Assembly: GCA_031370785.1 (NCBI GenBank)
Contig: JANMQY010000092.1
Span: 1-64,000 of the forward strand
Direction of reading: 5' to 3'
DNA: 64,000 bases
From: Candidatus Eiseniibacteriota bacterium
Lineage (GTDB): Bacteria > Eisenbacteria > RBG-16-71-46
Of this stretch, positions 45,938 to 58,460 are shown piece by piece; the first letter of the stretch is position 1; each line of letters begins with the position of its first letter. Made by a program: the position numbers and the translations under genes. The notes beneath the pieces were generated by a model that was not told where the DNA came from, made no database searches, and was given only the letters and a program-made list of their open reading frames with translations.

Positions 45938-46143
45938 TTTGCCCGTCGTTCGCGAGTGGGTCCGTCCGATCGAGCGTGGTGCACCGATGAATTCTGTCAT
46001 GGGTAATCTTGTGTCTGCGAATTTCTTCCGAGTCACCGGTCTCGTCGTCTGAATCGCCCTGGCAGCGTCGGCCTGCCGGGGCATTCTTGTTTTGGTCCCA
46101 CGCTGGTTGTTGTCCCAAGTCCCCTCGGAGGGTGTCGGGCGTC

Positions 46144-46764
46144 ATGGTTACCGGAGAGGATCAGAAGATCACGTGCGTGGACTGCGGTGAAGAGTTCCTG
46201 TTCACCGCGGGCGAGCAGGCCTTCTATCGGGAAAAGGGACTGACGCACGCCCCCACCCGATGCAAGCGCTGTCGGGAGAGTCGAAAGAGCAAGGGTGCCG
46301 AATCGCGGGGCACGGCAGGATCCACGATGGGCGGCAAGGAACTGTACACCGCGGTCTGCTCGGATTGCGGCATCGAGACCCAGGTGCCGTTCATGCCGAC
46401 CGGCGCACGCCCCGTGTACTGCCGCAACTGCTTCCAGACCCACCGGGCCGACGGTGCGCGGACTGTCGGCGCTCGCGGCGGCAGTGGCCGCGGCGGCCAG
46501 CGTGCCGCTCGCGGCGACGGTCCGCGCACCGCGCCCGCGACGCCCGCGCCGATCGGCGAACGCACGCAGGGCGCGGTCAAATGGTTCAACGAGTCGAAGG
46601 GCTTCGGTTTCATCCAGGACGAAGGGGGAGAGGAAATCTTCGTTCACTTCAGCGCCATTCAGTCCGACGGCTTCAAATCCCTCAACGAGGGTGATCGCGT
46701 CGAGTACGACGTGGTCGCCGGTGCCAAGGGAAAGCAGGCCTCGAACGTGGTGCGTAGGCCCTGA
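46144..46764 (+). CDS. Double zinc-ribbon (CxxC...CxxC) plus RGG linker plus cold-shock domain protein
   Basis: [14 protein letters not shown]...P.RCKRC; CSDC...VPF.P...[31 protein letters not shown]. Confidence 0.9.
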
Positions 46765-46863: not shown

Positions 46864-48510
46864 ATGCTCGAGACCGAAAAGACCTTCGCCGCGCTCAGCG
46901 AGGAGTTCGTCGAGGTCACGTTGCGCCACAACCCGGTTGCCGCCACCCGCGCCGGGCTGCACGACTACGACCGGAAGTTGCCCGACGATTCCCCGGCGGG
47001 CCTGCGCGAGCGCGCGGCGTGGTTGCGCGACATCGACCAGCGCCTGGTGGCAAGCGTGCCGTGGGGTGAGCTGCCGATCGAGTCCCGCGTGGATTTCGCG
47101 CTGATGCGCTCGATGATCTCGGCAACCCGCGCCGATCTGGAAGAGGTGAAGGTCTACGCGCGCAACCCGGTGATCTACCCGGAGACCGCGCTCAACGGAG
47201 TGTTTCTGCTCATGGCCCGCCCCTTCGCCCCGCTCGACGAGCGCAAGGAGGCGGTGCTCGAGCGCCTGATGGCGATCCCGGATTACCTTGCCGCCGCCCA
47301 GGCCAACCTGCAGCAGGCCCCCGAGCTGTTCGTGCGCATCGCGGGCGAAGTCAACCTGAGCGGCCCGCAGTTCGTGGACGAGGTGATGCGGACGCTATTG
47401 CGCAGCTTCCCGGGCGAGGCCGAGCGGATCGAGCACGCGGGAGAGCGCGCGCGGGTCGGTTTCCTCCAGTACCAGGAATTCCTCGAGCGTGATCTGCGGC
47501 CGCGCGCCGGTGGAACGTTCGCGATCGGCGAGCGCTGGATGAACTACAAGCTCGAGCGCCAGCACCTGCTCTCCGTCGACTGCGCCTACCTCGAGTCGAT
47601 GGGCCGCGATCGTGTCGCGAGCACCCAGTCGCTGCTCGAGCAGGAGGCGAGGCGTCTGGACTCGACCCGCGGCTGGCGCGAGCAGGTGGCGGAGGCCAAG
47701 CTGCGCCATCCCGAGTCGCTGCACCTGCTCGATGCCTACGTTGCCGAAGTCGAGCGCGCGCGCCGCTTCGTTCAGGAAAAGAAGCTGGCTCCGATCGCTC
47801 CCGGGGCGCTGGAGGTGATCGAGACTCCGATCTTCGAGCGCGCCGTGCTGCCCTATGCGTCCTACCTGGCGCCCGCGCCGTTCGACGAGGAGCCGGTCGG
47901 GCACTTCTACGTCACCCCGATCGATCTCGGACGCCCTCGCGCGGAGCAGCAGCAGCAGCTCGAGGAACACAACTACGCATCGCTGCCGATCGTCGTGGTG
48001 CACGAGACCTTTCCCGGGCACCACCTGCAGCGCTGCCACGCCGGACGCAACGGCTCCAGGCTCCGCCGCCTCGCCTCGAGCGAGCCGTTCGCCGAGGGCT
48101 GGGCCCTGTATGCGGAGGAGCTGATGCACGCCGAGGGCTACTTCCTCGATCCGCTCACCCGGCTGCTCCAGTTGCGCGACCTGCTGTGGCGTGCGTGCCG
48201 GGTGGTGCTGGACATCGGGCTGCACACCGGCCGCATGACGTTCGAGCAGGCAGTCGAGTACCTGGTGGAAGAGGCGATGATCGAGCGCGTCAACGCCGAG
48301 ATGGAGGTGAAGCGCTACGCACTCACTCCGACCCAGCCGCTCAGCTACCTGGTCGGCAAGGAGATGCTCGACGAGATCCGCGACGAAGCCCGCGCCCGGA
48401 TGGGCAGGGCGTTCAACCTTTACGATTTCCATGCCGAGCTGCTCCGTATCGGAACGTTGCCGCCGTTCCTGATTCGCGAAGAGCTCGGTGGGAGGCTCAC
48501 CCCACGATGA
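46864..48510 (+). CDS. DUF885 family protein (metallopeptidase-like)
   Basis: AGLHDYD, HETFPGHHLQ, EGWALYAE, RACRVVLDIGLH, EVKRY..TPTQ..SY.VG. Confidence 0.9.
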   Translation: MLETEKTFAALSEEFVEVTLRHNPVAATRAGLHDYDRKLPDDSPAGLRERAAWLRDIDQRLVASVPWGELPIESRVDFALMRSMISATRADLEEVKVYARNPVIYPETALNGVFLLMARPFAPLDERKEAVLERLMAIPDYLAAAQANLQQAPELFVRIAGEVNLSGPQFVDEVMRTLLRSFPGEAERIEHAGERARVGFLQYQEFLERDLRPRAGGTFAIGERWMNYKLERQHLLSVDCAYLESMGRDRVASTQSLLEQEARRLDSTRGWREQVAEAKLRHPESLHLLDAYVAEVERARRFVQEKKLAPIAPGALEVIETPIFERAVLPYASYLAPAPFDEEPVGHFYVTPIDLGRPRAEQQQQLEEHNYASLPIVVVHETFPGHHLQRCHAGRNGSRLRRLASSEPFAEGWALYAEELMHAEGYFLDPLTRLLQLRDLLWRACRVVLDIGLHTGRMTFEQAVEYLVEEAMIERVNAEMEVKRYALTPTQPLSYLVGKEMLDEIRDEARARMGRAFNLYDFHAELLRIGTLPPFLIREELGGRLTPR

Positions 48511-49394
48511 AGCGCACCGCTGCGGCGATCTTCGCTCTGCTCCTCGCTCTCGCTCCATTCTCCGCGCATGCGGTCGTTCCGGGCACACGCTACGCCGAGA
48601 TGCCGGACCGGTACGGACTCCAGTACGACCCGGTTGAGATCCCGACTCCCGACAAGGCGACGGTGTTCGGCTGGTGGTTTGCCGGCCGAGCGAAATCGCC
48701 GGTACTGGTGCTGGCTCCGGGCAGCACCGGCACCATGGCGTCGCTGCTGCCGGTGGCGCGCGAGTTCCACGATCGCGGCTTCTCGGTGCTCACCTTCGAC
48801 TATCGCGATTTCGGCCCCAACGGCGCGGGCCCGCAGGACAGCCTGCATTACGTGGTGCGCTCCTCGCGCTGGATCACGGACATGCAGGGTGCGCTGCGTT
48901 TCGCGCGCGCCAGGTCCGACAGCGCCGCGGTGTTCGCGTGGGGCGGTCCCGACCTGGCGAGCGTGGTCGCGCTCGGTGCCGCGGCGCGCGAGCGATCGCT
49001 GTGCGAAGGGCTGGTGATGGAGGGCGTGTACGCCAGCGCCGATGACGAGATGCGCGCCAACGGCACCGCAGTGATTCCCGAAGCAGTGCAGCAACAGGCA
49101 CCTCAGATGCTTCCGCGCGACGAGCCGAGGGCGGCGGGGGTCGCATGCCGGACTCCGATCCTGCTCGTAGGTGGCTCGCGCGACACGCTGACGCCACCGG
49201 CCGCGACCGCGCTCCTCATCGCGCGCGGACGGGCGCGACTGGATCGATTCATCATCCCCGGTGCCGGGCACGAGAATCTTGCCGCGACTCCCGGATACTT
49301 CGATCGGGTGTGTGAGTGGGTGCTGCACATGGGACAGTTCGTGGGCGAGAACCTCGGGCGCTCGCGGCCGGATTCCACGCGGTCGAGGCGGTAA
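48507..49394 (+). CDS. Exported alpha/beta-fold hydrolase-like protein
   Basis: Signal peptide; GWW, GFSVLTFDYRDFG, GSRDTLTP, GAGH; nucleophile elbow reads WGGPDLA. Confidence 0.75.
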   Translation: MKRTAAAIFALLLALAPFSAHAVVPGTRYAEMPDRYGLQYDPVEIPTPDKATVFGWWFAGRAKSPVLVLAPGSTGTMASLLPVAREFHDRGFSVLTFDYRDFGPNGAGPQDSLHYVVRSSRWITDMQGALRFARARSDSAAVFAWGGPDLASVVALGAAARERSLCEGLVMEGVYASADDEMRANGTAVIPEAVQQQAPQMLPRDEPRAAGVACRTPILLVGGSRDTLTPPAATALLIARGRARLDRFIIPGAGHENLAATPGYFDRVCEWVLHMGQFVGENLGRSRPDSTRSRR

Positions 49395-49448: not shown

Positions 49449-50792
49449 CTAGCGATCTTCCCCGCTTCGCCACGGGAACATCGTCCAGCCCGCCTTGCCC
49501 TCTTCGTATTGGATCTGCGGCAGGACGCGGCCTTCGAGACGGCTCGGCAGCATCTTCGACGAGTTGTTCGAGGCGACCGAAGCCAGGTTCACGTGCTGGA
49601 TCTTTGCGCCGAACTTCGTGTTGACCGCGTCGATCAGCGCGTTGCACAGAATGCCGTGAGCGATGTCGGTCGGATGCACGCCGTCCAGGCTGAATAGACC
49701 ACCGGTGACGAAATCGCTCGTGTAGAGCTGTCCCTGGTAGGTAAAGCCGGTGGTTGCCGCCTGCCGCAGAAGCGCGTTCAGATCGAGCAGCGCGCCGCCG
49801 CGTGCGGTCGCAAGGCTGGCGATCGTCACGTTGTACGCGTTGACCGTGGCCTGGATCGAAGCGGCCTCGCTGGTCGAGAGCACCACCGAATTCGGCAGCG
49901 CCACACCTGTACCCGGCGCGCCGGTCAGGTAGGAGAAAGTGCCGACTGGGAAGCCGTCCCCATTGGCCAGTGACGGCGCTGCGGTGAGCAACACGTGGTC
50001 GAGCGGTGAGAGCGGGGCCGGGGAGCCGCTCTCGCTCCCGATCAGCGGGATCAGCGGGAGCACCGGGTTGCCGGTCGCATCGAGCACCACTGCGGGGAAC
50101 GTGGTGACAAAGGGAATGCTGGTCACGTCCGGCACGTTCACCAGCGCGAACTTTGCGTTTGGAGCTGCGACCGCGATCTTGTCCAGCAGCGCGGTCAGAT
50201 CAGTAGCGAACGTAGCCGGCGGCGACAGCGAAGTGCCTGAACCGTTCGTCGCCGGGCCCAACACCTCATTCGCGCCGTATTCGATGGTGAGGAACGTCGG
50301 CGAGAGCGAGAGCGCCTGATCGGAGACCGGTGTCGAACCCCGTGCGATGAGCGGGAAGGCGCCAGAACCGTAGTTAGCCGCGCTGCTCGCATCGGTCAGA
50401 AGCGCGCCCGGTACGGCCATGTTGTGGTAGGGGGTAGGCTGGGTCGCGTTGGTTGGCGAGCCGGCCACACGCCCGTTTCTGTTGATGACCAGCGGGCTCA
50501 GAGAGACCAACCGCAGCAGGGGGGGCAACCCGTCCGCGCTCACGCTCGGAATGGTAAACGGAGTTCCGACCTGCTGCGCGAACAGGTAGACGAACGATTT
50601 CTGCTGATGATGGACCACCAGGCCGCCCGATTGGTAGCCGGCGGAGATGCTGGTTCCGAGTGCGGCATAGGTCGAGAAATCCGCGCTGCCCGATTGCAGG
50701 GCCGGCGCGTTGATCGCCTTGAGCTTGCCGCAGCCCGCGAGCGCGAGCGCGGCATACCCAAGCGCGAGTAGAGTTCGAACGGATGTTTTCAT
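49449..50792 (-). CDS. SGNH/GDSL lipolytic lipoprotein
   Basis: Lipobox LAGC; ALGTSISAG, NMAVPG, GANE, FSLDGVHP. Confidence 0.88.
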   Translation of the reverse strand: MKTSVRTLLALGYAALALAGCGKLKAINAPALQSGSADFSTYAALGTSISAGYQSGGLVVHHQQKSFVYLFAQQVGTPFTIPSVSADGLPPLLRLVSLSPLVINRNGRVAGSPTNATQPTPYHNMAVPGALLTDASSAANYGSGAFPLIARGSTPVSDQALSLSPTFLTIEYGANEVLGPATNGSGTSLSPPATFATDLTALLDKIAVAAPNAKFALVNVPDVTSIPFVTTFPAVVLDATGNPVLPLIPLIGSESGSPAPLSPLDHVLLTAAPSLANGDGFPVGTFSYLTGAPGTGVALPNSVVLSTSEAASIQATVNAYNVTIASLATARGGALLDLNALLRQAATTGFTYQGQLYTSDFVTGGLFSLDGVHPTDIAHGILCNALIDAVNTKFGAKIQHVNLASVASNNSSKMLPSRLEGRVLPQIQYEEGKAGWTMFPWRSGEDR

Positions 50793-50817
50793 GGCGTGCA
50801 TTCTCCTCTGGCGCCCG

Positions 50818-52113
50818 TTACCAGCGCAGTTCGGCGGTGACGCCGATCGAATTGATGAAGGTCTTGTACTCGCCGTCGTATCCGTCGCGGTTGATGCCTT
50901 CGGTGCTGCGCTTGTTCACGAACAGCGCGAGGTCGTAGGCGTCCAGCGCCCACTGCTTGTTCGCGCCGAAGCGCATTCCCAGGCCCAGCGTCGCGCCGTG
51001 GCGGTCCGCATCGGGCAGCAATGGAGAAACCGACTCGGGCGGCGCGGCGCCCTGATCGAAGTAGTAGCCGAACCGGTACGTGAACGCAGTCAGCCGGTGT
51101 TCGGCGCCGACCCGCACCTGCACGGTGTTGTCGTAGTTTTCCTCGATGGTCTGATTCGCGGACGGCGTGGTCTTGAAGTAGAGCGGAAGGTCGCTGAACA
51201 GCTTCCACTCGACGTAGTTCACATCGGCCTCGACCGTCCAGTCCGTCGCCGGCAGGAACGCGATCCCGGCCGACCACGTGGCCGGGAAGCGCAGCACCGT
51301 GCTCACGTTCTGATCCGGCGGAAGGCTCGCGGCCACCGCGGCGTCGAATCCGGCATTGCCGGTCAGGATCTGCGTGAAGTCCGCGTGCCCGTCTTCGTGC
51401 ACCACCACCTTGCTGCGATAGGCCGCACCCAACTTCCACTGCGTGCCGGGCACGAACGAGAGTGCGGCATTCCAGCCATAGCCGGGCGTCCGGTCTCCCT
51501 CGAGATCGGCCTTCGCCACATCTGTCACCGCCCCGCCGCCGCCCGGCACCACCGCCTGGACGCGGTTGTGCAGCTCGACGTTCGCGAGCAGCACGTTGCC
51601 GCCCGCGGCCACGCTCCACTGGGGGTTCAGCTCGTAGGCGAGCGAGAGCGTGGAGTTGATGGTGGTGAGCTTGGCCTTGGTCACGATGTAGCGGCCGGTG
51701 TAAGTGTCCGGATTCTTCCAGTCCACCCCGAGCCCGTATGTGGTGTTGACTCCGAACCCGACCGCCCATTTCGACGCCGTGCGGTGGGTGAGATAGAAGG
51801 TGGGCAGGGGGAAGTGCTGCGAGTTCATCTCCTCGGTGACGCCGTAGCCCGGGTAGGCCGGCATTCCGGCGAAGCTCACGGCCGGAGACAGGATGCTGCT
51901 CCCGATGTAGAAGCGCGTGCGATCCACTCGCGTCAGCGCGGCGGGATTGAAGAACAGCGCCGAGGCATCATTCACCGATGCGGTGCCCGCCCCGGCCATG
52001 CCGAGCACGGCAGAACCCTGCTCGTAGATCTGATAGCCGGCGGCATGCGCCGGATCGGGAGCCGCGATCGCGCACAGCAGCGCGGCTCCGAGCATGAGAC
52101 GGACCGGTTTCAT
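50818..52113 (-). CDS. OmpP1/FadL long-chain fatty acid outer-membrane transporter
   Basis: Signal peptide; AGYQIYEQG...GMAGA...DASALFFNPA, YGL..DW, LPDADR, terminal W; AAGGAG RBS. Confidence 0.92.
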   Translation of the reverse strand: MKPVRLMLGAALLCAIAAPDPAHAAGYQIYEQGSAVLGMAGAGTASVNDASALFFNPAALTRVDRTRFYIGSSILSPAVSFAGMPAYPGYGVTEEMNSQHFPLPTFYLTHRTASKWAVGFGVNTTYGLGVDWKNPDTYTGRYIVTKAKLTTINSTLSLAYELNPQWSVAAGGNVLLANVELHNRVQAVVPGGGGAVTDVAKADLEGDRTPGYGWNAALSFVPGTQWKLGAAYRSKVVVHEDGHADFTQILTGNAGFDAAVAASLPPDQNVSTVLRFPATWSAGIAFLPATDWTVEADVNYVEWKLFSDLPLYFKTTPSANQTIEENYDNTVQVRVGAEHRLTAFTYRFGYYFDQGAAPPESVSPLLPDADRHGATLGLGMRFGANKQWALDAYDLALFVNKRSTEGINRDGYDGEYKTFINSIGVTAELRW

Positions 52114-52151
52114 GATGCTTCTCCTTAGGGGTGGGGAGGGTCCCGGCGACG

Positions 52152-53972
52152 CTAGGCTCTGCCGTAGTTCGTCGGGTGGGCGGGAGCGTGGGCATATAGC
52201 TTCGAGATGACGTCGGCGAATCGCTCCGCGACCACCCGCCGGCGGACCTTGAATGTGGGCGTCAGCTCGCCGGCGTCCTGACTCAGGTCGCGGCCGAGCA
52301 GCGCGAAATACTTGATCTGCTCGAACGGAGCGAGATCGACGTTGAGCGAATCCACGATCTGCTGATAGAGCGCATTGACCTCGGGAAGGCCGAGCAGCTC
52401 CTCGTGGGTCGTGAACTTCCATCCGTGGGTGCGCGCCTCGGCCTCGAGGGTCGCGAAGTTGGGCACCAGCAGGCACACGACGTAGGGCCGCTGGTCGCCG
52501 AGCAGCACCGCCTCGGTCACGAACTTGCTCTGCTTGAGCCTGGCCTCGAGCGGCTGCGGCGCGATCTTCTTACCGCCCGCAGTCACCAGCAGATCCTTGA
52601 TCCGGTCGGTGATGACCAGCATGCCGTCGGAATCGAGGTAGCCGACATCCCCGGTGTGGAACCATCCATCGCGGATCGCCTGGTGAGTGGCCTCCTCGTT
52701 CTTGAAATACCCGAGCATGACGTGCGGGCCACGCGTCAGGATCTCGCCGTCCGCGCCGATGCGCACTTCCACTCCGGGGATGGGTGGTCCGACCGAGCCG
52801 GGCTTCTCGTTTCCGCGCCGGTTGAGACAGATCACCGGCGAGGTCTCGGTCAGGCCGTAGCCTTCGACGATCGGGATGCCGACCGCGAAGAAGAACTCGA
52901 GCAGCTTGCCCGAAAGCGGCGCGCCGCCCGAGACGCAGTAGCGCAGCCGGCCGCCGACCCGCGCACGGATCTTGGCGCCGACCAGCCGGTCGGCGATCCG
53001 GGCTTGGAATGCGGCGAGCGGGCCGAGCTTGCGGTGCGCGAAGTAGGCGCGGGCCTTCACCTGACCCGCATGCAGGCCCCAGAAGAAGATGTTGCGCCGG
53101 ATCGGGGGCTGCGAGAGCGCGTTCTCCATCACCCGGGCATATACCTTCTCGTAGAAGCGCGGCACACCGGTCATGACGGTCGGGCGCACTTCGACCGCGT
53201 TGGCCGCCACCGTGTCGATGCTCTCGGCATAGGCGATGGTGACGCCCGCGCCGAGCATGGCGTAGAGCCCGGCCATGCGCTCGAGGATGTGACACAGCGG
53301 CAGGAACGAGAGGCTGGTGTCTTCAGCTCCGAGCCCGATCGTCTCCAGGCACGCGGCGACGTTCGAGGTCACGTTGCCGTGAGAGAGCATCGCCCCCTTG
53401 GGCTCTCCGGTGGTGCCCGAGGTGTAGATGATGGTGGCGAGATCCCCGCTCTTCACCTGCTGCGCCGACTGGCGGAAGGCCTGCGGTTCGCGCGCCAGGC
53501 GCTCCGCGCCGCGCCGCATGATCGCATCCAGCGGCCGGTCCTTGGGGTGGCTCTCCGCAACCGGGTCCATGTGCACCAGCGCGGCAAGCCGGGGAAGCGT
53601 GTCGACGATGGCGTGAAGCTTGGCGAGCTGCGCCGGCGTCGAAGCGATCACCACCTTCGCTTCGGAATTCTCGAGGATGTAGCGGCACTGCTGTGCGGTG
53701 AGCGTCGGATAGATCGGCACCGAGACCGCGCCGAGCCCGAGGATCGCCAGATCGCACACCGGCCACTCGTAGCGGTTCTCCGAGAGGATTGCGACGTGAT
53801 CGCCGCGCTGCACTCCCAGGTCGCTGAGCCCGAGCGCCAGGCGCTCGACGTCGGCGAGCGCTCGCTCGGCGGAGATGGACTCCCAGCGGCCGGACACCTT
53901 GCGCATGAACAGCGAGGGCTTGCGATGGCGCGCGACGGTTTCGAGAAAGATGCCGATCAGCGTTTGCGTCAT
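52152..53972 (-). CDS. fadD: Long-chain fatty acid-CoA ligase
   Basis: IIYTSGTTGEPKG, LPLCH, EGYGLTE, GWFHTGD, DRIKD. Confidence 0.9.
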   Translation of the reverse strand: MTQTLIGIFLETVARHRKPSLFMRKVSGRWESISAERALADVERLALGLSDLGVQRGDHVAILSENRYEWPVCDLAILGLGAVSVPIYPTLTAQQCRYILENSEAKVVIASTPAQLAKLHAIVDTLPRLAALVHMDPVAESHPKDRPLDAIMRRGAERLAREPQAFRQSAQQVKSGDLATIIYTSGTTGEPKGAMLSHGNVTSNVAACLETIGLGAEDTSLSFLPLCHILERMAGLYAMLGAGVTIAYAESIDTVAANAVEVRPTVMTGVPRFYEKVYARVMENALSQPPIRRNIFFWGLHAGQVKARAYFAHRKLGPLAAFQARIADRLVGAKIRARVGGRLRYCVSGGAPLSGKLLEFFFAVGIPIVEGYGLTETSPVICLNRRGNEKPGSVGPPIPGVEVRIGADGEILTRGPHVMLGYFKNEEATHQAIRDGWFHTGDVGYLDSDGMLVITDRIKDLLVTAGGKKIAPQPLEARLKQSKFVTEAVLLGDQRPYVVCLLVPNFATLEAEARTHGWKFTTHEELLGLPEVNALYQQIVDSLNVDLAPFEQIKYFALLGRDLSQDAGELTPTFKVRRRVVAERFADVISKLYAHAPAHPTNYGRA

Positions 53973-54178
53973 GCGTCCCTCCGGTTCGGGCCGCCTTCCT
54001 GGTGGCGGCACGGCGCGGGAAGGCATAGCACCCGCGGAACACACCCTCAAGCGCGAAAAGGCCGCCGCAACACGCTACCCGGTGCGCCCGGTGCGGCCGT
54101 TGACAAGTGGAACGGCGGTGAAGGACAGTCCGCGGGCTGTGGGGCGCATGAGGCGCCCGGCAACGGAGGCGTCATGCC

Positions 54179-54988
54179 ATGGCACGTCTGAACGGATTCC
54201 ACGCCACTACGCGACTCGCACTGCCTGCCCTGCTCGCGATGCTCGCGCTGCTCTGGGCCCCGCCCCGCATCGCGGTAGCGTCGGGTGCCGCCGAGGCCGT
54301 CACGCGCGGCGATGAGCTTTACGCCAGAGGGCGCCTCGCCGATGCGTACGCGCAGTACGCGGTCGCGCTCCAGGCGAACCCTTCCGACTTTCACGCGCTG
54401 TGCCGGATGTCCCGCGCCGAGTCCGAGCTGGGCGAAGACGCCAGCGGCGAGGAACGCCGCCGTCTGATCGCCGCGGCGGTCGAGCATGCGCGCGCGGCGG
54501 TGCGCATCGCGCCCGACAGTGCGCAGGGCCACGTGTGGCTGGCGGTCGCGCTCGGGCGCCAGGCGCTCAAGGAAGGACCGAAGGGCAAGCTCGCGCTGGC
54601 GCGCGAGATCAAGTCCGAGGCCGATCGTGCGCTTGCGCTCGACCCGAACAACGCGCGCGCCTACCACGTGCGCGCGGTGTGGAACCGTGAAGTGGCGGGC
54701 CTCAACTTCTTCGAACGGGCCGCGGCCAACACCGTGCTGGGCGGAGTGCCGGCCGGAGCCTCGATGGACAACGCGGTCCGCGACCTCGAGAAGGCGATCT
54801 CGCTCGAGCCCGACTACGTAAATCACCACCTCGAGCTGGGACGCACGTTCCGCATGCTCAAGCGCTGGGGCGACGCGCGGCGCGAGCTGGAAAAGGCGAT
54901 CGCGCTGCCGCCCACCAGCAATTCGCGCGATCCGAAATTCCAGGACGAAGCGCGCGAGCTGCTCTCGCGCCTGCCGAAGAAGGGCTGA
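54179..54988 (+). CDS. Exported TPR protein, RMDN (regulator of microtubule dynamics)-like
   Basis: Signal peptide; LCRMSRA, GHVWLA, EG.K.K, IKSEADRALALDP, W.REVAGLNFFERAAA...GGVP, LELGRT, EARELL. Confidence 0.75.
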   Translation: MARLNGFHATTRLALPALLAMLALLWAPPRIAVASGAAEAVTRGDELYARGRLADAYAQYAVALQANPSDFHALCRMSRAESELGEDASGEERRRLIAAAVEHARAAVRIAPDSAQGHVWLAVALGRQALKEGPKGKLALAREIKSEADRALALDPNNARAYHVRAVWNREVAGLNFFERAAANTVLGGVPAGASMDNAVRDLEKAISLEPDYVNHHLELGRTFRMLKRWGDARRELEKAIALPPTSNSRDPKFQDEARELLSRLPKKG

Positions 54989-54999
54989 GCAAAAGCGAC

Positions 55000-56286
55000 A
55001 TGGCGAGCGGTTCCTCCTCCGCCTGGATCCTTGCTGGCGTGCGCACGCCGTTTGCCAAGGCCGGAACCGCATTCGCGCGCACGCCGGTCTACGAGCTGGG
55101 CCGGATCGCGCTCGCCGAGCTGCTCGCGCGCCAGGAGCTGGATCCGGCGCGCCTCGATGAGGTGATCCTCGGCAACTGCGCGCAGCCTGCCGAGGCCGCG
55201 AACGTCGCGCGCGTCACCGCGCTGCGCGCCGGAGTTCCCGAGTCGGTCCCCGGATTCACCGTGCACCGCAATTGCGCCTCGGGCATGGAGTCGGTGGCCG
55301 ACGCCGCGCTGCGCGTGCGCGCCGGTGAGGCCAGGCTGGTGCTGGCCGGCGGCATGGAGTCGATGAGCCAGATTCCGCTCCTCTACCCCTACGAATACGG
55401 GACATGGCTCGAGAGCTTCATGCGTGCGAAGACGCCGCTGCAGAAGCTCGGCGCACTGACCCGTTTCCGCGCCGGGATGCTCAAGCCGCGGATCGCGATC
55501 ATGGAGGCGCTCACCGATCCGGTGTGCGGTCTCAACATGGGCCAGACCGCGGAGGTGCTGTCGCGCGAATGGAAGATCACGCGCGAGCAGCAGGACGCCT
55601 TCGCGCTGCAGAGCCACCAGCGCACCATCGCCGCGCGCGAGCGGCTGCGCGACGAGATCGTGCCGGTGTTCGTCGAGCCCGGCTACGCGATGATCGCGGA
55701 CGATGTCGGGCCGCGCGAGGGGCAGACGCTCGAGGCGCTCGGGAAGCTGAAGCCGTTCTTCGACCGTCGCAACGGAACGGTCACGGTCGGCAACTCCTGT
55801 CCGATCACCGATGGCGCGGTGGCACTGCTGGTCGGGGACGAGACCGTGGCCGGGTCGTGGCCTACTCCGCCGCTCGGGCGCATCGTCTCGTTCGCGTTCG
55901 CGGGGCTCTCGCCGAAGCGCATGGGGCTCGGGCCGGTCTACGCCATGGCACGCGCGCTCGATCAGGCGGGACTGACGCTCGCCGACATGGGGCTGATCGA
56001 GATCAACGAGGCATTCGCTGCGCAGGTGCTGGCGTGTCTGGCGGCGGCGAAGAGCGCGGAGTTCGCGCGCACCGCACTCGGGCGCGAGGAGCCGCTGGGC
56101 GAGATCCCGATGGAGAGGCTGAATCCCAACGGCGGCGCGATCGCGCTCGGCCATCCGGTCGGGGCGAGCGGCGCGCGCCTCCTGCTCACCCTGCTGATGG
56201 AGATGCGCCGGCGCGGGCTCAAGCGCGGCATCGCCAGCCTGTGCGTCGGCGGCGGACAGGGCGCGGCGTTCGTGGTGGAGCGATGA
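55000..56286 (+). CDS. Acetyl-CoA C-acyltransferase (3-ketoacyl-CoA thiolase, FadI-like)
   Basis: RTPF, NCASG, GGMESMS, NEAFA, GHPVGASG, LCVGGGQG. Confidence 0.95.
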   Translation: MASGSSSAWILAGVRTPFAKAGTAFARTPVYELGRIALAELLARQELDPARLDEVILGNCAQPAEAANVARVTALRAGVPESVPGFTVHRNCASGMESVADAALRVRAGEARLVLAGGMESMSQIPLLYPYEYGTWLESFMRAKTPLQKLGALTRFRAGMLKPRIAIMEALTDPVCGLNMGQTAEVLSREWKITREQQDAFALQSHQRTIAARERLRDEIVPVFVEPGYAMIADDVGPREGQTLEALGKLKPFFDRRNGTVTVGNSCPITDGAVALLVGDETVAGSWPTPPLGRIVSFAFAGLSPKRMGLGPVYAMARALDQAGLTLADMGLIEINEAFAAQVLACLAAAKSAEFARTALGREEPLGEIPMERLNPNGGAIALGHPVGASGARLLLTLLMEMRRRGLKRGIASLCVGGGQGAAFVVER

Positions 56287-58460
56287 GCCCGGGCGCCTTC
56301 CGCATCGTGTGGCCGCGGCCCGGGCTCGCGCACCTGGTGATGGACGACCCCGCGCACAAGGTAAACGTGCTCGACGAGCCGGCGCTGCGCGATCTGGAGC
56401 GCGCGATCGCCGAGCTCGAGGGCGCCGCCTCGCTCGAGGGTGTGGTGCTGGCCAGCGGCAAGACCAGCGGATTCATCGCCGGCGCGGACATCGAGGCGAT
56501 CGGACGCCTGACCGATCGCGAGCAGGTGCTGGCGCTGATCCGGCGCGCGCACGCGATCTTCAACCGGCTGGCCGCGCTCAAGGCTCCGACCGTGGCGGCG
56601 ATCGACGGCGTGTGCCTCGGAGGAGGGACCGAGCTGGCGCTCGCATGCGACTCGCGAGTGGCTGCCGAGGAGACCGCTCAGATCGGCCTGCCCGAGACCC
56701 TGCTCGGCATCTTCCCCGGATTCGGAGGCACCACCCGCCTGCCGCGGCTGGTCGGCGTGCAGACCGCGCTCGATCTGATCCTGACCGCGCGCACGCTCGA
56801 TGCGCGGCGCGCCGAAAAGGTCGGGCTGGTGGCGCGCGCGGTCCCGCAGGCGTGGCTGATGCAGGCCGCCGAGGAAAGGCTGGCCCAGCTGGCCGCCCGC
56901 CCGGCGAAGCGGCGGCGCGACGCGTTTCGTCCGCGGGGCTTCAGGATGTGGCTGCTCGAGGGCAACCCGTTCGGTCGCCAGACGGTGTTCCAGCGCGCGG
57001 AGGCCATGACCAGGGCGCGAACCCAGGGGAAATACCCGGCGCCGGTCGCTGCGATCAAGGTCATGCAGCTCGCGCACGGCCGTCCGATCGGCGAAGCGCT
57101 GGAGCTCGAGGCCCAGTGGGTGAGCGACCTCGTGATCGGGCCGGTGTGCAAGAACCTGGTGCGCATCTTCCGGCTTCAGGAGCGGGCGAAGAAGGATCCG
57201 GTCGGCGATCCGACCCTCAAGCCCCGTCCGGTGCGTTCGCTGGCGCTGATCGGCGCGGGCCTGATGGGCGGGGGCATCGCGGAGCTGGCCAGCCGTAACG
57301 GTGTCGAGGTGCGCATCCGTGACGTCCAGCCTGCCTCGCTGACGCACGCGCTCCAGACCGTGAAATCGCTGGTGGATGAGCGCGTGCACAAGCGGCGCGC
57401 GACCCGCATCGAGGCCGCGGCCCAGCTCGCTCGCGTGCTGCCAACCCTGGATCTCACCGGATTCAAGCGCGCCGATTTCGCGATCGAGGCGGTGATCGAA
57501 GACGTCGACGTCAAGCGCCGCGTCTTCGGCGAGCTCGAGGTGAGGGTTTCGCCCGATGCGATCCTCGCCACCAACACCTCGTCGCTTTCGGTCAACGCGC
57601 TGGCCGACGGGCTCGAGCATCCGGAACGCTTCTGCGGATTCCATTTCTTCAATCCGGTGCACCGCATGCCGCTGGTCGAAGTGGTGCGCGCGCGGCAGAC
57701 CTCGGATGCGACCCTGGTCAGTGCGGTCGCCTTCGCGCGCCGGTTGGGGAAGACTCCGGTGGTGGTGAACGACTCCCCGGGATTCGTGGTGAATCGTATC
57801 CTGATGCCCTACCTGCGTGAGGCCATGCACCTGCTCGAGGACGGCTATCCGCTCGCCGACATCGATGCCTCGATGAAGCGCTTCGGCATGCCGATGGGCC
57901 CGTTCGCGGTGCTGGATGAAGTCGGGATCGACGTCGCGCACAAGGTGGCCGGCGTGCTGTCCCGCGCATTCCCCGACCGGATGACGCCGTCCGATGCGCT
58001 CGAGAAGCTGCTCGCCGCGAAGCGGCTGGGGAAGAAGAGCGGCGCCGGGTTCTATCGCCATCGCAGGCGCAAGTCGGTCCTTGACCCGAACCTGCGCGCG
58101 CTGCTCGGGCTCAAGCGCGAGCGTCGGGCGCAGAGTCTCGAGCTCCTGAGCGAGCGCATGGTCCTGGCCATGATCAACGAAGCCGCGCGATGTCTGGAGG
58201 AGGGCGTGGTCGCGGACGCGGGGATGCTCGACCTGGCGATGATCTTTGGCGCGGGATTTCCGCCGTTCCGTGGTGGCCTGTTGCGCCATGCCGACACCCT
58301 CGGGCTCGCGAGGATCGAGGCGCGCCTGACCGCGCTTCGCGCTGAGAAGGGCGAGCGCTTCGCTCCGGCCAGGCTGCTGTCCAAGCTCGCGGCCGAGGGC
58401 GGCACATTCACGGGCGAGGCGGCAGGCGAAGCGCGCGGGAACTCGCGCGGCGAGAGCTGA
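56283..58460 (+). CDS. Multifunctional enoyl-CoA hydratase / 3-hydroxyacyl-CoA dehydrogenase (FadJ/FadB-like)
   Basis: FIAGADI, CLGGG.E, GLPE, GAGLMGGGI, EAVIED, TNTSSL, HFFNP, GFVVNR, PMGP; ATGA overlap with the thiolase. Confidence 0.95.
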   Translation: MSPGAFRIVWPRPGLAHLVMDDPAHKVNVLDEPALRDLERAIAELEGAASLEGVVLASGKTSGFIAGADIEAIGRLTDREQVLALIRRAHAIFNRLAALKAPTVAAIDGVCLGGGTELALACDSRVAAEETAQIGLPETLLGIFPGFGGTTRLPRLVGVQTALDLILTARTLDARRAEKVGLVARAVPQAWLMQAAEERLAQLAARPAKRRRDAFRPRGFRMWLLEGNPFGRQTVFQRAEAMTRARTQGKYPAPVAAIKVMQLAHGRPIGEALELEAQWVSDLVIGPVCKNLVRIFRLQERAKKDPVGDPTLKPRPVRSLALIGAGLMGGGIAELASRNGVEVRIRDVQPASLTHALQTVKSLVDERVHKRRATRIEAAAQLARVLPTLDLTGFKRADFAIEAVIEDVDVKRRVFGELEVRVSPDAILATNTSSLSVNALADGLEHPERFCGFHFFNPVHRMPLVEVVRARQTSDATLVSAVAFARRLGKTPVVVNDSPGFVVNRILMPYLREAMHLLEDGYPLADIDASMKRFGMPMGPFAVLDEVGIDVAHKVAGVLSRAFPDRMTPSDALEKLLAAKRLGKKSGAGFYRHRRRKSVLDPNLRALLGLKRERRAQSLELLSERMVLAMINEAARCLEEGVVADAGMLDLAMIFGAGFPPFRGGLLRHADTLGLARIEARLTALRAEKGERFAPARLLSKLAAEGGTFTGEAAGEARGNSRGES

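Follow-up and report, generated by a model that had tools for sequence, protein, structure and literature searches.

A likely exported RMDN/PTPIP51-family tetratricopeptide-repeat protein in a divergent fatty-acid locus of Eisenbacteria: a candidate accessory carrier of acyl lipids

The stretch of DNA analysed here (the window) comprises 64,000 nucleotides of contig JANMQY010000092.1 from a Candidatus Eiseniibacteriota bacterium (assembly GCA_031370785.1), and it carries six genes in two divergent runs: a FadD-type acyl-CoA synthetase, a FadL-family outer-membrane barrel, and an SGNH hydrolase are encoded on the minus strand, and a tetratricopeptide repeat (TPR) protein, a thiolase, and a FadJ-type alpha subunit on the plus strand (Table 1). 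An earlier note on this DNA had placed these six genes, with 11 bp between the TPR and thiolase genes, and the list of open reading frames with its translations confirmed this arrangement; the thiolase and fadJ genes overlap by 4 bp. The TPR protein is a domain-level homolog of human PTPIP51 (RMDN3). We see about an even chance that it serves as an accessory, non-essential periplasmic carrier of long-chain fatty acids or other small acyl lipids, recruited to a locus for fatty-acid uptake and beta-oxidation.

Table 1. Features of the divergent fatty-acid locus (positions in the window)
Feature	Position	Strand	Basis
RMDN/PTPIP51-family TPR gene (P0001), 269 amino acids, heads the TPR-thiolase-fadJ run	54179..54988	+	Pfam PF21033; 7CC7 best by sequence and fold
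Likely Sec signal peptide of the TPR protein, residues 1-34, without lipobox	54179..54280	+	Sequence, hydropathy rule
Predicted helix-8 insert of the TPR protein, residues 175-191, counterpart of the PTPIP51 plug helix	54701..54751	+	Helix 143-152 of the model
Divergent intergenic region, 206 bp, back-to-back sigma-70-like elements	53973..54178	.	By eye
Long-chain acyl-CoA synthetase, FadD type, 606 amino acids	52152..53972	-	PF00501 and PF23562; best NCBIfam FadD11, below cut-off
FadL/OmpP1-family outer-membrane barrel (P0003), 431 amino acids	50818..52113	-	PF03349, 184.7 bits
GDSL/SGNH hydrolase, lipobox-like LAGC	49449..50801	-	PF00657 above cut-off
Thiolase (P0005), FadI/FadA-like, 428 amino acids	55000..56286	+	PF00108, PF02803; TIGR01930 above cut-off
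Fatty-acid oxidation complex alpha subunit (P0006), FadJ/FadB-like, 725 amino acids	56283..58460	+	ECH and 3HCDH domains; NF008363 697 bits, below cut-off

The TPR protein scored 58.8 bits against PF21033 (RMD1-3), for which the Pfam cut-off is 26.7, and in a sequence search of the PDB the TPR domain of PTPIP51/RMDN3 (7CC7) stood at the top of 52 matches (E 1.9e-15; runner-up 5.2e-8). The likeness to RMDN proteins that the earlier note had drawn is thus real, and all seven of the motifs that it listed were found in the order given. A family profile of 128 sequences matched 7CC7 at E 9.5e-42 in a single stretch covering positions 33-252 of 257; only three designed consensus-TPR arrays scored above it, through summed repeats. 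PF21033 was matched by 126 of the 128 aligned homologs (E <= 0.01), and the family numbers 1665 representatives at E <= 1e-10, part of which are generic TPR proteins. This bacterial branch is already present in databases under the label RMD1-3: the ESM Atlas holds bacterial RMD1-3 clusters at 0.97-0.98, most frequently in Gemmatimonadota and Bacteroidota. None of 14 well-known control genomes matched PF21033, and a tblastn search of plasmids with a Bacteroidota-like member gave no match. A family-profile search for longer or fused forms returned 118 matches, the domain lists of which were long TPR arrays and uninformative. Two other classifications of the protein were rejected: a generic TPR protein, by the single full-length match to 7CC7, and a full-length tether of the PTPIP51 type, as only 34 residues precede the domain and a membrane anchor, FFAT motif, and coiled coil were not found.

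The predicted fold agrees with this assignment. The model, built for residues 35-269, comprises 12 helices (pLDDT 96.3, pTM 0.92), and in a fold search of 48,161 chains 7CC7 ranked first (Z-score 26.0, root-mean-square deviation (rmsd) 3.1, 223 residues aligned), as it did in Foldseek (TM-score 0.80/0.82), so that the structural check proposed in the earlier note returned PTPIP51 and not a generic TPR protein. Further matches were Es_TatT (8G52; Z 22.5, rmsd 3.1, 218 aligned), the sterol binder BstC (7T1S; Z 21.1, rmsd 3.1, 216 aligned), and Tp0956 TatT (3U64; Z 19.7, rmsd 3.0, 211 aligned). These three and PTPIP51 are the fold matches over at least 211 residues, and all four are reported lipid binders; in Foldseek, only 7T1S of 8G52, 7T1S, and 3U64 was listed, at rank 26. 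The TPR domain of PTPIP51 likewise has 12 helices, which enclose a channel-shaped cavity with helix alpha-8 as a plug, and it transfers lipid in vitro, phosphatidic acid being moved (PMC10243591); a second paper reports this transfer in liposomes (PMC11811300). From the fold match to 7CC7, the window protein would possess a comparable cleft or cavity. In the family alignment, the helix-8 segment has the highest mean hydrophobicity of the 12 segments, and Lys or Arg is conserved at positions 135, 137, 145, and 180 in 107, 108, 110, and 126 of 128 members, respectively.

The TPR protein is likely exported to the periplasm, judging from its N-terminus and those of its relatives. Signal peptides and anchors were called by a hydropathy rule and not by SignalP; by this heuristic, an N-terminal hydrophobic core is present in 121 of 125 family members, and the pattern of small residues at -3 and -1 in 116 of the 125. 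A later membrane-like stretch was called in none of the 125, a result that is also compatible with an uncleaved anchor or with secretion beyond the outer membrane. A lipobox pattern occurs in 4 of the 125 and is absent from P0001.

The earlier note had overlooked a known periplasmic TPR-like protein that binds fatty acids, TatT (PMC11713862). According to that source, the crystal structure of Es_TatT contains palmitate, BstC is a sterol binder (for BstC, also PMC10942540), TatT is proposed to carry fatty acids or sterols across the periplasm, and approximately three quarters of TatTs are encoded with genes for the P, Q, and M components of tripartite ATP-independent periplasmic (TRAP) systems. 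Aligned by HHalign with a profile of 20 TatT sequences, the RMDN-like family gave a probability of 98% and a score of 91 over 194 collinear columns, end to end, while five generic-TPR control profiles reached scores of 37-46 and probabilities of 64-88% against TatT. The same controls scored 157-171 against the family profile, with which they had been chosen. Because the generic-TPR and TatT profiles both link to the family profile in score, the family appears from these alignments to lie between canonical TPR proteins and TatT. The signal emerged only with the 20-sequence profile: against one single TatT sequence the family profile gave a probability of 2%, and TatT entries were absent from the 60 best PDB sequence matches of two profiles. 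PF16811 (TAtT) had no match in the genome of the window (G000) at E <= 0.001, and three of four other genomes searched alongside were matched. Membership in TatT was rejected in view of this result, the lack of a lipobox, and the lack of TRAP genes among the neighbours, which are fad genes, a DUF885 gene, and a gene for an alpha/beta-hydrolase fold, with no TRAP P, Q, or M. By analogy, the TPR protein likely works like TatT though outside the TatT family. In phylum KSB1 (the phylum of genome G134), 11 of 22 genomes without an RMDN-like gene had a TatT match, versus 12 of 79 with one, in a set in which related genomes are not independent.

The linkage of RMDN-like genes to fad genes extends well beyond the genome of the window. 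Among 121 genomes of the window's phylum, the RMDN-like family occurs in 45, the barrel in 58, and both in 40; of these 40, the FadL gene lies within 8 kb of the RMDN-like gene in 34, at 11 kb in one, and on a different contig in five. A fadD or thiolase gene directly adjoins the RMDN-like gene in 26 of 28 close loci (1.5-kb flanks), and all six genes are present in 10 of the 20 wider loci from this phylum. In the Krumholzibacteria-group (the phylum of G137), the RMDN-like gene was found in 17 of 81 genomes, with an adjoining divergent fadD in 8 of 17 loci (6 of 14 without three preselected genomes). KSB1 has a matching barrel in 10 of 101 genomes, all 10 of which carry the RMDN-like gene; FadL lies within 5 kb of it in five (two known beforehand) and not in three, and the locus is cut by a contig end in two. 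The linkage thus recurs in three phyla. In a FastTree phylogeny of 243 proteins, which left out 16 of the 28 close loci, linked copies were spread over at least four separate, supported clades, and unlinked copies lay between these. Furthermore, the divergent layout is kept over 35-45% protein identity despite a change of partner, which is either fadD or FadL-SGNH without fadD.

Several observations concern the parts of this arrangement separately. An SGNH lipoprotein gene follows the FadL-family gene, as at 49449-52113 of the window, in all 14 fetched barrel loci without an adjoining RMDN-like gene (L230-L243). The TPR gene has no link as tight as this FadL-SGNH pairing, and FadL and the SGNH lipoprotein may form a complex. 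In three KSB1 genomes (L241, L242, and L243), SGNH-fadL stands divergent from thiolase-fadJ-acyl-CoA dehydrogenase and the RMDN-like gene is on another contig; the slot that it fills in the window is occupied by what we take, from the sequence, to be a TetR-like regulator. A separate RMDN-like clade (L125, L126, L127, and L129) lies outside the fad locus, as a second copy in G020, G023, and G127 and also in G033. Approximately 2 kb downstream of L126 and L127, on the same strand, is a gene for a distant AMP-binding enzyme (28-41% identity to FadD).

A considerable body of observations weighs against a general tie between RMDN-like genes and fatty-acid uptake. Distant GTDB loci had been picked by one motif, and 80 of 178 were confirmed; FadL-SGNH was found within 8 kb in only 5 of these 80, a sixth having a partial FadJ match, and 60 had at least 4 kb upstream. 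Their usual neighbours presumably are housekeeping genes (uvrA, glutamate synthase, lepA/lepB, and enolase). None of 46 Bacteroidota-like metagenome loci matched the fad queries, many of these loci being short (21 with at least 4 kb upstream), and all 10 loci from the small phylum of G133 were without fad linkage within 1.5-kb flanks. In KSB1, 69 of 79 carriers had no FadL matching the query and 56 of 79 had no FadD at E <= 1e-90, in searches with single-protein queries that can miss distant homologs, and FadD was commoner without the RMDN-like gene (14 of 22 non-carriers). FadL likewise occurs without the RMDN-like gene in 29 of 42 FadL genomes of the Krumholzibacteria-group, 3 of 3 in family f2, and 7 of 7 in family f7. 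The three linked phyla may also be kin, in which case shared descent can account for part of the synteny. No single partner gene travels with the RMDN-like family; linkage to fad genes is far from general, and most relatives lie elsewhere in their genomes. The survey of neighbourhoods therefore bears out the earlier note in part, as linkage reaches at least four clades and is missing in 75 of 80 distant and 46 of 46 Bacteroidota-like loci. Its proposal of lipase, FadL, carrier, and FadD as one fixed uptake system fails as a general rule, since FadL often occurs without the gene and the gene often occurs without a matching FadL. As a separate observation, RMDN-like genes of the G133 phylum (L132, L133, L138, and L139) lie near envelope genes of the ExbB/MotA and MacB families.

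The pattern of gene loss shows that the RMDN-like gene is dispensable. In four relatives (G007, G008, G013, and G030), fadD, thiolase, and fadJ are in place and both the RMDN-like gene and FadL-SGNH have been lost; G058 probably represents the same loss across a contig break. Beta-oxidation has thus been kept after loss of the gene in several relatives. Against the carrier interpretation, G109 has lost the RMDN-like gene alone and five genomes have lost FadL alone. On a 22-row tree of FadD, thiolase, and FadJ, the RMDN-like gene changes state four times and the barrel six times, and a test of co-loss of the gene with FadL on this tree (four independent pairs, median p 0.625) was not significant. 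Since the gene is dispensable and was not found in the 14 control genomes, it cannot be the general answer for uptake of the E. coli type.

As for the other genes of the locus, the names FadL, FadI, and FadJ are used at family level only, because P0003, P0005, and P0006 all remain below the respective NCBIfam equivalog cut-offs; the barrel, for example, scored 119 bits against the FadL equivalog NF007988, for which the cut-off is 585. The barrel is a member of PF03349, and a role in fatty-acid uptake is suggested by its neighbours. The catalytic blocks of the SGNH hydrolase are intact, the block motifs being present in the window protein and most of 30 homologs. In the divergent intergenic region, TTGACA at 54100-54105 faces the TPR gene and TTGAGG...TGCTA from 54050 faces fadD; both elements are sigma-70-like and, by eye, recur in the intergenic regions of relatives. 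A scan with the strict sigma-70 consensus found no promoters, and terminator-like sites were as frequent as chance would give (4 observed vs 4.4 expected). In four loci of the Krumholzibacteria-group (L162, L164, L166, and L167), TTGACA and TGTCAA face each other at a distance of approximately 20-25 bp in the spacer that separates fadD from the RMDN-like gene, an arrangement resembling a pair of overlapping divergent promoters. Two RNA runs (from one study) with a relative of approximately 93% identity on contigs of 25-31 kb showed flat depth over genes and spacers; the signal could be DNA, and expression was not demonstrated.

The neighbouring region contains three further genes of the plus strand. 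The gene at 48507-49394 encodes an exported-looking protein of alpha/beta-hydrolase fold and adjoins the fad locus in many relatives. The nucleophile elbow of this protein has no serine in the window and in seven homologs (mostly W-G-x-D-L-G); the sequences suggest that aspartate may be used instead or that the protein may be inactive. A DUF885 gene (46864-48510), with three further paralogs in the genome of the window, is kept beside the locus in most relatives of family f1, even after loss of FadL-SGNH. Upstream of it, an open reading frame with two CxxC pairs (46009-46764) is conserved at this place in relatives; we take its C-terminal part to be cold-shock-like.

How could such a protein serve fatty-acid uptake? 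In E. coli, according to a review, FadL releases its substrate sideways into the outer membrane, flip-flop at the inner membrane and FadD draw the fatty acid in, and how long-chain fatty acids travel from the one membrane to the other is not yet clear (PMC9329746), in agreement with the gap in the FadL-FadD route to which the earlier note had pointed. For the window, we infer export, ligand, and transfer as follows. The SGNH lipoprotein, judging from its family and intact motifs, would release fatty acids from ester lipids, and the barrel, if it acts like E. coli FadL, would pass them sideways into the outer membrane. The hydrophobic helix-8 plug of the TPR protein might then dip into the membrane and let the acyl chain enter the cleft, while the conserved basic residues would grip the head group, as 7CC7 and TatT suggest. 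Unloading would follow at the inner membrane; there, as in E. coli, the fatty acid would be drawn in by flip-flop and FadD, for oxidation by the thiolase and FadJ. A soluble carrier would need no contact with FadL. Some lineages may thus have brought an exported lipid-binding domain, broadly used in these phyla, under the same regulation as the uptake and oxidation of fatty acids, by which the periplasmic step would be sped up and not required.

An alternative that we regard as unlikely is that the protein serves general lipid handling in the envelope and recycles fatty acids, lysophospholipids, and misplaced phospholipids back to the inner membrane; adjacency to fadD would then have less to do with feeding on lipid from outside than with activating anew the acyl chains of the cell itself. 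The broad presence of the gene in KSB1 (79 of 101 genomes, nearly always in single copy and mostly without FadL) fits this explanation, as do the Krumholzibacteria-group, which keeps the fadD neighbour (8 of 17) and not FadL (2 of 13 genomes with both), the five Eisenbacteria genomes that keep the gene without FadL, and the movement of phospholipid between membranes by human PTPIP51. It accounts less well for the lineage of the window, where the gene heads the thiolase-fadJ run opposite the lipase-FadL run and was lost together with FadL in three of four loss events, and a close FadD is also missing in most KSB1 carriers. Lipid binding as such is common to this explanation and to the accessory carrier of fatty acids, and we consider it probable.

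Distinctly less likely, in our judgement, is a periplasmic TPR scaffold or chaperone that binds proteins, for example outer-membrane proteins or lipoproteins, and no lipid. Peptide binding is the usual role of TPR domains, and a commentary holds the lipid-binding site of PTPIP51 itself to be unproven (PMC10243591). Ten TPR-type Pfam families match the TPR protein, and the generic-TPR profiles score highly against a family profile that had served to pick them. By fold, the generic bacterial TPR protein 2PL2 ranks second (Z 23.1, rmsd 2.2, 193 aligned), above TatT, and OGT (Z 19.8, rmsd 2.3, 186 aligned) ties with 3U64; both matches also count against the accessory carrier. However, the matches over at least 211 residues are all reported lipid binders, the hydrophobic helix-8 insert is conserved, and no single partner gene accompanies the family. 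That the gene is a passenger, which came to stand next to fadD a single time in a common ancestor, has been inherited in that place, and has a role that does not involve fatty acids, would fit the many sampled homologs without linkage, its clean removal while the rest of the locus remains, and the non-significant co-loss test, but we think it improbable given the divergent layout kept at 35-45% protein identity with changing partners, the position of the gene, with a promoter-like element on one side and the thiolase on the other at a distance of 11 bp, and a fold that points to lipids independently of the neighbourhood.

A wider proposal, which we hold to be doubtful, is that a single TPR superfamily of lipid carriers has RMDN/PTPIP51 and TatT/BstC as its two branches and that the exported bacterial RMDN protein is a soluble shuttle of fatty acids from FadL to FadD; if this is true, lipid transfer by mitochondrial PTPIP51 descends from a bacterial periplasmic carrier. 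The analysis of the window connects these two families of lipid-binding proteins, and the fad neighbours point to the ligand class of the bacterial RMDN homolog. No paper linking PTPIP51/RMDN with TatT/BstC, or describing such a locus for bacterial RMDN homologs or Eisenbacteria beta-oxidation, was found in a literature search that covered few subscription papers and no supplements. The crossing of the periplasm after FadL and the disputed lipid cleft of PTPIP51 are both testable with one purified small, likely soluble bacterial homolog.

Compared with known systems, the accessory carrier proposed here is closest to PTPIP51. The window protein shares with 7CC7 the family PF21033, the 12 helices, and the helix-8 insert, and the two are collinear over 223 of 235 residues (TM-score 0.80) at 24-25% identity; it differs in its bacterial origin, in consisting of a single domain that follows a signal peptide likely to be cleaved, and in being encoded in a fad locus, and it is too short for the FFAT and coiled-coil regions of PTPIP51 (PMC10243591). 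With TatT, the T-component of TPAT systems, it shares a TPR-like all-helical ring fold (Z 19.7-22.5 over 211-218 residues) and a collinear profile match that includes the last capping helix, but identity is only 14-19%, TatT is described as a lipoprotein whereas the window protein has no lipobox, the helix-8 insert falls in a gap of the TatT alignment, and two TatT inserts are missing from the window family. From the E. coli route of FadL, FadD, and beta-oxidation, the barrel, acyl-CoA synthetase, thiolase, and multifunctional alpha subunit are present as family-level matches, although in the window their genes form a single divergent cluster together with those for an SGNH lipoprotein and the RMDN-like protein. 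A precedent for a partner of FadL is AupA/AupB of Marinobacter, in which a FadL-family barrel is paired with a protein of its own that assists a hydrophobic substrate on its way to the inner membrane (PMC5989066). AupB resides in the inner membrane, binds AupA, and is required for uptake, whereas the TPR protein of the window is likely soluble and, by the pattern of gene loss, dispensable.

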